Shown here one piece after another: positions 17,721 through 50,122 of a stretch of 61,390 bases of DNA. The DNA comes from Candidatus Daviesbacteria bacterium (GTDB taxonomy: Bacteria; Patescibacteriota; Microgenomatia; Daviesbacterales; UBA10151): NCBI GenBank assembly GCA_016176335.1, contig JACOXI010000005.1, positions 1 through 61,390 of the forward strand, written 5' to 3'. The notes below the pieces were generated by a model. It was not told where the DNA came from, made no database searches, and worked only from the letters and a program-made list of their open reading frames with translations. Every line of letters begins with the position of its first letter. The first letter of the stretch is position 1. Made by a program: the position numbers and the translations under genes.

Positions 17721-18823
17721 GTTAAAATTTTGTCCAACTTTCCTTTCTCAATTGCCTCTTTAATCTCCATAGCAACTCTTTTTCCCATACTTATGTTTTG
17801 TCCATAAAGATAACCACTATATGGGGTAGCAAATATTCCAGGACTCCCTGGCATTCTTGGTGAAACATCAAAAACAATAAACTCCTTTTTGGAAGAACCT
17901 GTTGTAATAAAAGACTGTAAACTAAAGGGCCCTATAACTCCAGGTGGAAATAACTCTTGAGAGACTTTAACGAATTTTTCTCCTATATCCATAGCCGTCT
18001 CTATTAAAGACTCCAACATGGTAACTGCAATATGACCAGCTTCTTCATAACTAATATTTTCTCTAACTTGAGGTTGATACAAACCTGGAAGTTTTAGAAA
18101 TCCTTCTATATTTGTCTGTCGTCTTGTATCAGTACCAATAAGTTCTAGTCTTTTATGTACGGATGAATAGAAAAAATTAAGATTAACTTGTACTCCTAAA
18201 ATAAACTCCTCAATAACCGCTGATTTAAGTCCATCTCGAGTAATTTTTCTCTCTCCGATTAGACGCTCCGATTCAATGTTATATTGCCCCACTGAATTTA
18301 CTACAAAAAATGCCCTTTCATAACCTCGCTTTCTTTCTGGAACCTTAACCATTACAAGTCTATCTATATCTTGATAGCTGTTGAATTGCTTTGGGTATTT
18401 AATATCAGCTTTGGCTAGTAGATCATATTGATTGGTTTTTTCCGTGCGCTCCTCTGTGCGAAGTAAAAATCTGTTTCCAAATATTGGCACCTTAAATTTT
18501 TTCTCAATAGCATTGTAATCATTTAAGTAAACTTCAAAAGACCTGTGAGGGATGAAAATGCAATTTTTAGAAAGTAACTCTTTTTGAATTTTTTCACTTA
18601 AAATATCTGAAAATTTATCCAGTTCTATTACTTCATCAACGCAACCCAGTTCCCCGTAAGTTTTGTAATATTTTGCATAAGTTTTATCCCTACCTTTTTG
18701 TACAACAACCAAAGTTTTAAATCCTAAATCCTTTGCACCCCTACATACATCCAAAGCACTATGACTCCCCAATACTGCGATTGTATATTTTTGATTTTTG
18801 ATTTGTATTTTTGATTTTTGCAT
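17717..18823 (-). CDS. purP: Archaeal-type formate-dependent FAICAR synthetase-like ATP-grasp protein
   Basis: LGSHSALDV, IPHRSF, PGVIGPFSLQ, SPRMPG, MGKRVAMEIK; the N-terminus is encoded by a heptamer repeat. Confidence 0.85.
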   Translation of the reverse strand: MQKSKIQIKNQKYTIAVLGSHSALDVCRGAKDLGFKTLVVVQKGRDKTYAKYYKTYGELGCVDEVIELDKFSDILSEKIQKELLSKNCIFIPHRSFEVYLNDYNAIEKKFKVPIFGNRFLLRTEERTEKTNQYDLLAKADIKYPKQFNSYQDIDRLVMVKVPERKRGYERAFFVVNSVGQYNIESERLIGERKITRDGLKSAVIEEFILGVQVNLNFFYSSVHKRLELIGTDTRRQTNIEGFLKLPGLYQPQVRENISYEEAGHIAVTMLESLIETAMDIGEKFVKVSQELFPPGVIGPFSLQSFITTGSSKKEFIVFDVSPRMPGSPGIFATPYSGYLYGQNISMGKRVAMEIKEAIEKGKLDKILT

Positions 18824-18836
18824 TTTGATTTTTGAT
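18788..18836. repeat. Heptamer tandem (TTTTGAT-like, about 7 units) at the purP-purP junction
   Basis: Encodes MQKSKIQIKNQK on the minus strand. Confidence 0.8.
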
Positions 18837-19904
18837 TTAATCTAAAACCTCTCTTAATTTATTTTGTTTGAGAGCATTCTTAATTTCTCTAGCGATACGG
18901 CGTCCTGTTGACATTGGTTCATCATAAAGAAGATATGTATAAGGAGAACCGTTTATAAAACAATTCGTCCCCGCCACAATCCTAGCAGAGATTTCAATAA
19001 TATAAATTTCTTCAGTTGAGGTAATAATTGTTTCTAAACAAAATGGTCCAAACAAACCTTTTTTTGGCATTAATCTTTGCGAAGTTTCAATAACTCTTTC
19101 AGCCATCTCTAATGCTGGAGCCATCATTGATTCTCTAACTGCCATGGGGATATTAGCAACTACTTCAAAAGATGGTTCTATATCGTATCCTTTTTGATAT
19201 TTTGCAGGAATTCTACCTAATGAATCAACATTGGTTTCATATCTTTTATCAACACTCATAATTTCTACTTTGTGAGTTAGTGGTGAGTAGAAAAAATGAA
19301 AATAAACTGGCACACCAATAACATACTCTTGGACAATAAACTTTTCCTCACTAAAGGTTTTTAATTTCTCATCTAACTCTTTTTGGTTCCTGGCCACAAA
19401 ATACCCTTTTCCTCCTGCAGCCCCATAAGATTTCACAATCACAGGCCTATCAGTTTTGTCTCCTTTCTTAAACCTATGTGGCACTTTAATTCTAGACTCC
19501 TCCATCCAACTTCTTTGCATTTTTCTATTCTCTTCCCAATCTAAAACTAATTTATTTCCAAAGTAAGGCACTTTCATACTCTTATTTGCTTCCATACCCA
19601 AGTATGCCACAAATGACCCATGAGGAATGATAATCGAATTTCTCTTTATTAAATTGCTTTCCAACTTTGGAAAGTCAGACCATTTATCGATTAGCAAAAT
19701 ATCATCAATAAAATTATTGTAAGAAGAATAAAGTGTCTTGCGGTCCGGAGTACAGACAACTGCAGTTTTAAAACCCTCGTCTTTAGCTCCTTTGAGGATT
19801 TGTAAGGCCGAGTGAGAACCTAAAGTGACAATTGTGTATTTTATAAGCGAAGCTTGAAAACTTCGTTTGAAAGTTGAGCTTTCAAACTTGTTTATAATTC
19901 CCAT
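18837..19904 (-). CDS. purP: Second PurP paralogue
   Basis: LGSHSALQILKGAKDEGF, IPHGSFVAY, GPFCLE, EISARIVAGTN, MSTGRRIAREIK. Confidence 0.9.
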   Translation of the reverse strand: MGIINKFESSTFKRSFQASLIKYTIVTLGSHSALQILKGAKDEGFKTAVVCTPDRKTLYSSYNNFIDDILLIDKWSDFPKLESNLIKRNSIIIPHGSFVAYLGMEANKSMKVPYFGNKLVLDWEENRKMQRSWMEESRIKVPHRFKKGDKTDRPVIVKSYGAAGGKGYFVARNQKELDEKLKTFSEEKFIVQEYVIGVPVYFHFFYSPLTHKVEIMSVDKRYETNVDSLGRIPAKYQKGYDIEPSFEVVANIPMAVRESMMAPALEMAERVIETSQRLMPKKGLFGPFCLETIITSTEEIYIIEISARIVAGTNCFINGSPYTYLLYDEPMSTGRRIAREIKNALKQNKLREVLD

Positions 19905-19984
19905 AGCTTATTATATTAAAAAGACTACCAAATGTCAAAAACTTATGCTACACTTGTCATTCTGAACAAGATGACAAAAGGTAT

Positions 19985-48606: not shown

Positions 48607-49092
48607 TTACATCTCAAAATCTAAAAATTTATACCTAAAACCTTCATGTTCCTGCCAATCTGATTCAAAAACCACCTTTTTAAAATCAGAATAATCCGGG
48701 AAAAAGACATCTCCTTCTATCTCTTTATCTATTTTAGTTAAATACAGCTTGTCAGCTAAAGGCAGGGCCTGTTTATAAATTTCTCCTCCGCCGATGACGA
48801 AAATCTCCTCGTCTCCGGGTTTACCTTGAGCAACGTTCAGACCTTCATCCAATGAATGAACAATAATACACCCCAATGCTCTGTAACCCGGTTCATGAGT
48901 GATCACAATATTTGTTCGACCTCCTAAAGCTTTGCCAATAGACTCATGGGTTTTTCTGCCCATAATGATAGGATGTCCCATGGTAATTTCTTTAAATCTT
49001 TTTAGCTCGGCCGGTATATACCAAGGAAGGCCTCCTTTTTTCCCAATGACTCTTTTCTTTCCTGCCACTGCTACAATGATGCTAATCTTCAT
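48607..49092 (-). CDS. folA: Dihydrofolate reductase
   Basis: LPWYIPAELKRFK, IIMGRKT, VIGGGEIY, GDVFFP. Confidence 0.97.
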   Translation of the reverse strand: MKISIIVAVAGKKRVIGKKGGLPWYIPAELKRFKEITMGHPIIMGRKTHESIGKALGGRTNIVITHEPGYRALGCIIVHSLDEGLNVAQGKPGDEEIFVIGGGEIYKQALPLADKLYLTKIDKEIEGDVFFPDYSDFKKVVFESDWQEHEGFRYKFLDFEM

Positions 49093-49097
49093 AGGTA

Positions 49098-49144
49098 AAT
49101 TTAGAATTTATAATTCATAATTTAATTCTGAATTCTAGATTCTC
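49098..49144. repeat. Heptamer array between thyA and folA
   Basis: TAATTCA TAATTTA ATTCTGA ATTCTAG ATTCT. Confidence 0.65.
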
Positions 49145-50122
49145 TCAAAAACCGCCTACCACTGTTACTTCTCCTTTAATTGGCGGGTAAGGATTGTATC
49201 CAACAAGTTCAAAATCTTCCAATTTAAAATCATCAATATTTTTAATTTTAGGATTAATTTTCATTTTCGGGAAAGGTCGAGGTGTCCTTTTAAGTTGTTC
49301 TTTAACAGCCTCAAAGTGGTTACTGTAAATATGAACATCGCCAAAAGTATGGACAAATTCGCCTGGTTTTAGCCCAACCACTTGAGCAAGCATCATGGTA
49401 AAAAGAGCATATGAGGCAATATTAAAAGGAACACCCAAGAAAGTGTCTGCTGACCGCTGATATAGCTGCAGAGATAATCTCCCTTTATTGACGTTAAACT
49501 GAAAAAGAGTATGGCAAGGAGGCAAAGCCATGGATTTTCCCTTTAAGGCCATCTCATAAATGAACTCCGGATTCCAGGCAGATACCACAATAGATTTTCT
49601 AAACGGCGTTGTTTTTAACTCGCTTATTGCCCAAGCCAGCTGGTCTATAACTCTGCCATCAGATGTTCTCCATCTCCTCCATTGCACTCCATACACATTG
49701 CCCAAATCCCCCCATTTTTTAACAAAAGGATCACTCTTTGGCAATTCCTTTATTTTCTGTATAAACTCTTCCTGTGTCATTAAGCTTTTCGCTTTTCGCT
49801 TTTCGCTTTTCGCCAGGACTACTCTGTAGCCCTTATAAGCCCATTCATCCCAAATGTGCACATCCTGATCAACCAGATACTTAATATTTGAATCTCCCTT
49901 TAAAAACCAAAGTAGCTCATGAATTATTCCTCTCAAAAAAACTTTTTTAGTAGTTAAAAGCGGAAAACCCACTGATAGATCAAACCTCATCTGTCTTCCG
50001 AAAACAGATTTGATATGTACCCCTGGATTATTGAATACTGGTTTATTAACCCCGTTTTTAAGGATATCTTGTAATAAATCTAAATATTGATACTCTTCAT
50101 GTCTAAACTTGTTGTTCGGCAT
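49145..50122 (-). CDS. thyA: Thymidylate synthase
   Basis: [45 protein letters not shown]. Confidence 0.98.
49784..49811. repeat. Perfect (GCTTTTC)x4 in frame in thyA
   Basis: Encodes [10 protein letters not shown]. Confidence 0.9.

Follow-up and report, generated by a model that had tools for sequence, protein, structure and literature searches.

The DNA analysed here (the window) is a stretch of 61,390 nucleotides, C7:1-61390 of a 7-contig, 925-kb genome of a Candidatus Daviesbacteria bacterium (assembly GCA_016176335.1; G+C ~38%, completeness estimate 96.9%). The organism is of the ultrasmall Candidate Phyla Radiation (CPR) type, and window sequence was found again in groundwater metagenomes. 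The window's genes are almost all on the minus strand. Among them are a purP-like gene, purH, guaA, purS-purL, purN-purD, thyA-folA, pyrG, the dnaX...folD-ybaB-recR cluster and frr, together with a 65-aa open reading frame (ORF) that we read as rpsU (ribosomal protein S21). Dispersed between and within these genes are tandem arrays of 7-nt units, several of them paired as the inverted arms of a hairpin. These heptad arrays, and their relation to the protein family PF05635 (23S_rRNA_IVP; NCBIfam TIGR02436 'four helix bundle protein'), are the subject of this report. An Rfam scan of the window matched zero families and the window holds no rRNA; PADLOC gave no match, hence no link to a defence system.

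The period of 7 is not an effect of composition. Tandem Repeats Finder (TRF) listed 15 period-7 rows with ≥ 3 copies in the window, where ~0.1 would be expected, and 212 such arrays in the whole 925-kb genome, with any other period reaching at most 16. Sequences simulated with genome-trained Markov models (orders 1, 3 and 5) yielded 1.3-2.3 period-7 arrays, so that the excess is ~100-fold. An independent lag-match detector counted 104 segments for lag 7, 63 for the harmonic at lag 14, and ≤ 9 for every other lag. The initial annotation, made from the letters of this stretch, had described recurrent period-7 tandem repeats with differing units and had staked the idea on an enrichment that outlasts composition correction. 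All three approaches bear this out: period 7 is common to arrays of many different units, specific and strongly enriched. One array that had been placed at 38119 has its true coordinates at 38176-38225.

Merging period-7, -14 and -21 arrays gave 192 elements, which make up 0.9% of the genome; although 92% coding, the genome thus tolerates ~190 heptad inserts. By blastn, ~70% of the elements fall into five large unit themes (51, 27, 22, 15 and 11 members), 56 are singletons and the remainder form small clusters, the themes being single-linkage clusters in which over-merging is possible; 81 canonical units occur in the genome. The units had been called locus-specific, which is true of the singletons and of the thyA, guaA and C-terminal dnaX arrays, each unique in the genome, but not of the majority. 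Array size is fixed, with a genome median of 4.3 units and 30.5 nt. The commonest theme, AAATCTC/AAAACTC, forms an arm-loop-arm element of roughly 60-180 nt (typically ~100 nt) whose internal motif is kept at unrelated loci, and the same arm-plus-loop sequences were found again at 4-12 loci.

Clear hairpins number at least 34 against ~2 expected when neighbouring units and stems are scored together, a procedure that replaced an initial inverted-partner test whose control was too permissive (44 versus 24). In the window, reverse-complement partners across short spacers were recovered at all six of the hairpins in Table 1, as had been described. Five of these have 4-12 relatives elsewhere in the genome, and the one at 49098 has none. 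The stems at 34437 and 40431 consist of 5-6-bp blocks with one mismatch per heptad between them, and TRF calls the right arm of the 45841 pair as period 9.

Table 1. Heptad elements of the window and the single Y1 transposase-like gene of the genome. Positions are window coordinates unless a contig is given; X9, X10, X13 and X14 are groundwater runs that supplied contigs of related organisms.
Position	Strand	TRF period-7 start	Element	Setting	Related places elsewhere in genome	Orthologous site in related organisms
4047..4068	.	4047	weak solo array CTTACTA x3.1	convergent spacer; borderline, 80% matches (TRF)		
15114..15136	-	15114	short array, sense AACAATA/AACGAAT; AACGATA theme	within adenylosuccinate-lyase gene (Pfam)		
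18787..18838	.	18787	solo array TTTTTGA x7.6; unstructured as RNA	5' end or spacer of purP-like gene	six	37 nt, against 78 nt in window
22656..22678	-	22656	perfect (CTGTTGC)x3.3 array, 23 nt	variable loop of guaA	unit unique in genome	
26580..26620	.	26580	solo array ATTCTTA x5.7; unstructured as RNA	fills 25-nt spacer, purN-purD fusion / purS-purL	six	
34437..34524	.	34438/34494	88-nt hairpin, AGAATTY arms; RNA fold z = -5.8	between recR and next gene	eight	X9, X10: without hairpin (alignment skips 122 nt of window), 31 nt align right of it; left boundary 34436/34437
35427..35497	.	35427/35468	71-nt hairpin, GTTTATC / GATAAAC arms; fold z = -2.8	between folD and ybaB, separating an AGGAGG site from the ybaB start codon	12, one being an arm of the PF05635 gene at C5:159907	X14: 7 nt (ACTCCTC), against 78 nt in window
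38176..38225	-	38176	degenerate array TCTTCNA x7.3	in frame, C-terminal half of dnaX	unique in genome	
39111..39182	-	39151 (with 39111)	heptad hairpin encoding FVNRESLIMNRKDKNDNRYTINNI	zinc module of dnaX, in frame, with NCE on one side and PCN on other; inserts 18 residues compared with E. coli gamma/tau		19 codons shorter (NCEDKSEVPCN or NCSSDKNVPCN), against NCE-(24 residues)-PCN in window
40431..40502	.	40431	72-nt hairpin, GTCAGYC / GRCTGAY arms; fold z = -3.9, periodic mismatches	GGAGGTG site on one side, ATG of 65-aa ORF (read as rpsU) on other	ten	8-9 nt, against 87 nt in window
45841..45966	.	45841	hairpin, TAATTNC-type arms, structured 69-nt loop; fold z = -4.4	between frr and M50 protease gene		
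49098..49134	.	49098	small weak hairpin, AATTYWR units; fold z = -0.9, not significant	between thyA and folA	none	X9: 11 nt, against 61 nt in window; X13: 3 nt, against 59 nt
49784..49813	-	49784	perfect (GCTTTTC)x4.3 array, exactly 30 nt = 10 codons	variable small-domain region of thyA	unique in genome	one related contig crosses the site, length unchanged
G000 C3:103621-104316 (outside window)			Y1_Tnp-like (RAYT/IS200-type) gene, only copy	hairpins GTTCCCAC...GTGGGAAG in its 3' end and just downstream		

The elements occupy both coding and intercistronic DNA. On a crude ORF map 117 of them lie within ORFs, and ~60% are in frame inside genes. These in-ORF arrays have a sharp length mode of 30-31 nt (10 codons), are stop-free on the sense strand and include cassettes shared by many genes, with AGTCRTC encoding SSVISHQ-type peptides, AAGAATN ELRIKN and AACGATN RLTIND; in the window, modules that carry no gene of their own sit in frame in surface loops of the essential proteins encoded by dnaX, thyA and guaA. 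Such gene-less modules also mark cistron boundaries in conserved operons, namely dnaX...folD-ybaB-recR, thyA-folA, the HIT gene-rpsU-yqeY group and frr-M50 protease gene. It had been noted that intergenic arrays mostly separate co-transcribed genes; the genes on either side are indeed co-directional for 54 of 66 intergenic elements, but spacer availability alone predicts 42-48.

We compared the window with contigs of related organisms, ~82-95% alike, from other groundwater runs (X9, X10, X13 and X14). Six window elements, five hairpins and one solo array, are missing whole from the orthologous sites (Table 1), and the boundary of each gap is marked by the element's first base (34437, 35427, 39111, 40431, 49098 and 18787). 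No target duplication is visible at the filled or empty sites. Across genera, the NCE/PCN site of dnaX holds six different heptad unit themes, or nothing. The elements therefore share with foldback elements and MITEs (miniature transposable elements with inverted repeats) their inverted termini, small size, many dispersed copies and filled and empty sites among relatives, while the target-site duplication and the cognate transposase of MITEs are lacking.

The same modules are at home well beyond this genome. At 18787/18838 the array ends coincide exactly with depth spikes and loose ends; at 26580 and 26618, loose ends were seen in other organisms, and depth spikes occur there too. In one groundwater run, the summed word depth of the arms at 45841/45966 is as high as 3,235x, their loop contents are of > 10 different kinds, and the theme of this hairpin is very abundant across the community. 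Together, these ends and loops place the modules in many other community contexts. Copy number, on the other hand, appears stable. Contigs of four runs (2017, 2020) that hold this organism are identical over every array, and thus give no sign of copy-number instability, although rare variants could be hidden in such consensus contigs. The variation in copy number that the initial annotation had proposed to look for was therefore absent from the contigs of these four runs, as was the variation within or between populations that characterizes contingency loci.

Hairpins at such positions might be functional RNA elements under selection, that is, intercistronic stem-loops which serve as RNase III sites, mRNA stabilizers or translational couplers and are kept for operon regulation. 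As RNA, four of the six window hairpins are much more strongly folded than shuffled sequence (z = -5.8, -4.4, -3.9 and -2.8), 20 of the 22 clear intergenic hairpins of the genome lie between co-directional genes, two stand exactly between a Shine-Dalgarno site and the start codon, and the stems of homologous intervening sequences (IVSs) are RNase III substrates (PMC4990558). Yet related organisms have the same operon junctions without hairpins, with spacers of 3-31 nt; the modules also occur in frame in ORFs and as unstructured single arms; their distribution among spacer types is near that predicted from availability; and they have no T-tract or terminator form. We consider this explanation unlikely. 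The role in mRNA processing or stability that had been suggested for the arrays is weakened as their primary reason, because the hairpins are missing from related organisms and the same arrays occur in frame within ORFs. Intrinsic terminators were rejected as well, the stems being AT-rich, with periodic mismatches and no T run.

PF05635 was first found in 23S rRNA intervening sequences, and proteins of the family have been reported as homopentamers. The window has no PF05635 gene and its elements are gene-less, the nearest copies being on other contigs. The genome holds 7 such genes, each with heptad arrays on both sides and with a unit that varies among the copies; the arrays are inverted in six, and the seventh has a near-palindromic unit. 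A PF05635 gene between complementary termini, the defining arrangement of an IVS cassette, is thus present elsewhere in the genome. Among 29 PF05635 loci from this genome and its relatives, inverted flanks occur at 69%, compared with 0.9% of 912 other genes, and arrays on both sides at 45%, compared with 1.2%. In named genomes from many phyla (78 scorable of 80 loci), flanks were inverted at 61% of CPR and 51% of non-CPR loci, the latter from Gammaproteobacteria, Clostridia, Bacteroidota, Acidobacteriota, Nitrospira and others. These loci were found with an alignment of eight sequences, an earlier and more diverse alignment being unsuited to a contig scan. Named relatives of this genome's PF05635 genes are mostly Patescibacteria (Levyibacteriota, Daviesbacteria, others).

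Arms follow the relatedness of the proteins: 55% of closely related protein pairs, and ~1% of distant ones, have arms in common (Mantel test, 0/500 permutations). At a median of 4.4 copies and 31 nt, the arms also equal the arrays of the genome in size. Window hairpins 35427 and 39111 match one arm of the C5:159907 cassette. The GTTTATC theme is linked to a gene-carrying copy by blastn, and the GTCAGYC and AAAGGGG themes by eye only; for hairpin 40431, whose unit theme resembles the arms of the PF05635 gene at C5:13677 by eye, blastn gave no link at E<1e-3. Exact matches between the unit repertoire of the genome arrays and PF05635 arms elsewhere show a modest excess (21.9% versus 12.8%), and the comparison is uninformative at one mismatch. 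PF05635 is weakly Avd-like, but the Avd model scored under its cut-off and the genome has no RVT_1 reverse transcriptase, and a retroelement or diversity-generating retroelement route was rejected on these grounds.

As a separate observation, the upstream arms of PF05635 loci L168-L247, from named genomes, very often carry TAG in every heptad and the downstream arms CTA, so that, on whichever strand is read into the cassette, every one of the three frames meets a stop codon within 21 nt. Arms of this type could act as a translation insulator.

Across genomes, the arrays go with PF05635. For other genomes, array density was taken from 4-60 kb sampled per genome, mostly 20 kb. Among 40 relatives (4-25-kb samples, most ~24 kb), density rose with the number of PF05635 copies per Mb (Spearman 0.50, p = 0.001, without phylogenetic correction), and four class-level relatives that lack PF05635 had 3 weak arrays in a further 325 kb. 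In a sample across the phylum (genomes of 0.5-2.0 Mb, most ~1 Mb), PF05635 was present in 118 of 201 genomes. Here 20 Patescibacteria genomes without the family had 4 marginal arrays in 352 kb, and 20 with ≥ 6 copies had 131 arrays in 357 kb, with the spectrum peaking at period 7. Both states occur within six families, and in each of these array density was lower in the genome poor in PF05635. Within Patescibacteria, gene-less modules are thus essentially confined to genomes that carry PF05635. The initial annotation had proposed a search for a co-occurring enzyme, and the search does point to PF05635, but this is a four-helix-bundle protein without known enzyme activity.

A more conventional source of mobility would be a Y1 transposase, with the arrays as elements like repetitive extragenic palindromic (REP) sequences and their paired forms (REPINs), moved by a REP-associated tyrosine transposase (RAYT) or IS200-type enzyme. 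Transposition by Y1 enzymes of the IS200/IS605 type uses hairpins and leaves no target duplication, and both traits fit the elements. The genome has one Y1_Tnp-like gene (Table 1), and Y1 genes occur in 17 of 20 array-rich as against 7 of 24 array-poor genomes. The gene is flanked, however, by a different, GC-rich hairpin (GTTCCCAC...GTGGGAAG) and not by heptads; Y1 genes are lacking in G047 and G045, both array-rich, whereas the array-free G010 and G020 have 2-3; and no conserved target motif lies beside the arrays. Heptad elements neither flank the RAYT-type gene nor track its presence as REP/REPIN sequences do. We rejected this route as very improbable on account of the other hairpin family at the Y1 gene and a co-occurrence that fails both ways.

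Replication slippage in place has also to be weighed. It supposes that the replicase favours 7-nt slips, so that any heptamer expands locally, with inverted pairs and recurring units as by-products of composition and selection, an idea of Mrazek 2007 quoted in passages of PMC4679880 and PMC4692102. It would account for a period of 7 whatever the unit, for the 56 singletons and for the perfect thyA and guaA arrays with their unique units, and heptamer copy number does differ among Coxiella strains (PMC4990558). We nevertheless regard it as decidedly unlikely. Four independent assemblies (2017, 2020) show no difference in copy number, array size is sharply modal at ~30 nt instead of broadly spread, and single-unit steps to 4.3 copies in essential ORFs would cross frameshifts. 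Furthermore, orthologous sites either have or lack an entire arm-loop-arm unit, arm-plus-loop sequences are shared by 4-12 loci, and sister genomes of the same family that lack PF05635 lack arrays too, their replication machinery being assumed comparable.

On balance, and with modest confidence, we read the period-7 arrays as derivatives, lacking the gene, of IVS-like foldback cassettes that in their full form carry PF05635. A full-length member would consist of a PF05635/TIGR02436 four-helix-bundle gene between two inverted heptad arrays, and the module, four to five heptads or ~30 nt, would belong to a family of small foldback elements in which hairpins represent both arms and solo arrays one arm. 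Spread probably takes place at the DNA level, without target duplication or a recognizable transposase and with PF05635 as the likely trans-acting partner, and the modules would persist because they do little harm. At ybaB and rpsU the RNA hairpin would fold out, so that the ribosome-binding site and start codon stay adjacent; inside ORFs, the survivors would be stop-free units with a length that is a multiple of 3. Any RNase III or mRNA-stability role would be secondary. Of the earlier suggestion that a shared generative process, and not one transposed sequence, underlies the arrays, the second half stands, as no single sequence was transposed. Generation locus by locus does not fit the fixed-size modules of ~30 nt, the limited number of dispersed themes, the whole-unit gain and loss, the stable copy number and the likeness to PF05635 arms.

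Several observations weigh against the derivation from PF05635 cassettes. No movement has been observed and no enzyme found, the reading does not account for a period of 7, and a filled or empty site alone does not tell insertion from precise deletion. We know of no catalytic activity for PF05635. Phylogeny is controlled for only in part in the co-occurrence, which might stem from mobile-element load in general; Y1 transposase genes correlate with the arrays too, if less well and with failures in both directions. In addition, the PF05635-rich genome G088 had no array in 20 kb. The PF05635 loci are best matches to CPR queries, taken with loose thresholds. Neither of the two commonest themes (AAATCTC/AAAACTC and AATTCT) has an arm-matched PF05635 cassette in this 96.9%-complete genome, so that a strict one-protein-one-unit relation does not hold; arms of these types are present at relatives' PF05635 loci L067, L043 and L046. 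Around 47 in-ORF arrays of 28-33 nt we found no flank motif and no target duplication, and the units of the thyA, guaA and C-terminal dnaX arrays, unique as they are, may have arisen in place.

The rRNA IVSs, whose hallmarks are a location in helix 25 or 45 of 23S rRNA and excision by RNase III, resemble the cassettes in carrying the same protein family in the loop of a long stem of complementary termini, in lying in transcribed DNA and in the reuse of host sites across lineages with different sequences. They differ in that the window elements are gene-less and lie in operon spacers and protein-coding genes instead of rRNA helices, and in that RNase III excision could not rescue an mRNA as it does a fragmented rRNA. 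IVSs with an S23p/PF05635 ORF are described for Coxiella burnetii and Leptospira, and in that of Coxiella, GACAGAT heptamers lie in tandem beside the start codon, in the stem that RNase III cleaves (PMC4990558).

Short tandemly repeated repetitive (STRR) sequences and other heptanucleotide repeats had been named as precedents for the arrays; this literature is the right comparison, and the analogy holds. Heptanucleotide repeats have been recorded for decades in cyanobacteria, Xanthomonas, Beggiatoaceae and others. Passages of PMC4692102 describe GGGAATC repeats of Xanthomonas, which are kept between species and at ~70 sites form convergent inverted pairs, and GGGGA(C/T)T repeats of Nostoc, and passages of PMC4679880 describe TAACTGA repeats in Beggiatoaceae, Cyanobacteria and Bacteroidetes. 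As far as these passages go, those repeats are likewise 7-nt tandem units dispersed at many loci, mostly intergenic ones, and the AGTYRTC theme found here includes the reverse complement of TAACTGA, with the peptide SVISHQ here and LSVISYQ there. Taken as analogies, the Coxiella heptamer stem, the Xanthomonas inverted pairs and the TAACTGA peptide type agree with the window arrays. The difference, again as far as those passages go, is that genomes with STRR1-3, GGGAATC or TAACTGA have a single conserved unit or a few, unlike the five large themes and dozens of rare units seen here; our host, moreover, is an ultrasmall CPR organism with ~60% of its elements in frame inside genes. The passages searched of PMC4692102 and PMC4679880 contain no mention of PF05635 (S23p). 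A literature search found no paper that joins heptamer repeats with CPR or Patescibacteria.

A further comparison is with Rickettsia palindromic elements (RPE) and MITE-like foldback elements, which are small self-complementary repeats. Like these, the heptad elements are small, self-complementary and dispersed in a reduced genome, are tolerated in frame in essential genes, and have gene-less copies that far outnumber the gene-carrying ones. Unlike them, they show no target-site duplication and no transposase, their arms are heptad arrays with a unit that varies between families, and single arms occur alone.

The window has other features of note. At 19839-19894, near the 5' end of ORF 18837-19904, lies a 56-nt double-hairpin built without heptads (GCGAAGCTTGAAAACTTCG... 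TTTGAAAGTTGAGCTTTCAAA), and related organisms have 5-6 nt in its place. A convergent 210-nt spacer at 21263-21472, replaced by 9-12 nt in related organisms, apparently codes for a zinc-ribbon-like small peptide of the form Cys-x2-Cys ... Cys-x2-Cys. The purine set at 16194-28509 is unusually full for a CPR-type genome, with a PurP-like protein (DUF1297/DUF1246, archaeal type), purH and guaA, and includes the fusions purS-purL (928 aa) and purN-purD (634 aa). A single 674-aa ORF at 31978-34002 fuses cysteinyl-tRNA synthetase to cytidylate kinase, and 41979-43421 encodes a prolyl-tRNA synthetase of archaeal/eukaryotic type (ProRS-C_1).

For CPR organisms, the in-frame pieces of 10 or 19 codons in DnaX, ThyA and other essential proteins matter for the annotation and alignment of proteins. 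The excess of heptamer repeats in bacteria is an older puzzle, for which the passages searched of the heptamer-repeat papers give no mechanism past 'polymerase slippage' (PMC4679880, PMC4692102). We tentatively put forward a wider possibility, which at present seems doubtful: PF05635 may be a sequence-specific partner of heptad arrays that binds one heptad per subunit and drives or maintains their spread, in which case the STRR/GGGAATC/TAACTGA excess, the rRNA intervening sequences and the in-frame inserts of CPR genomes would belong to one genetic system. One heptad for each subunit of a homopentamer would explain arms of 4-5 units. The behaviour of the arrays as inserted modules, their tracking of one protein family, both across the phylum and inside taxonomic families, and their equal size to its arms turn the puzzle into concrete experiments, and the bacterial heptamer excess becomes testable on one small protein family.

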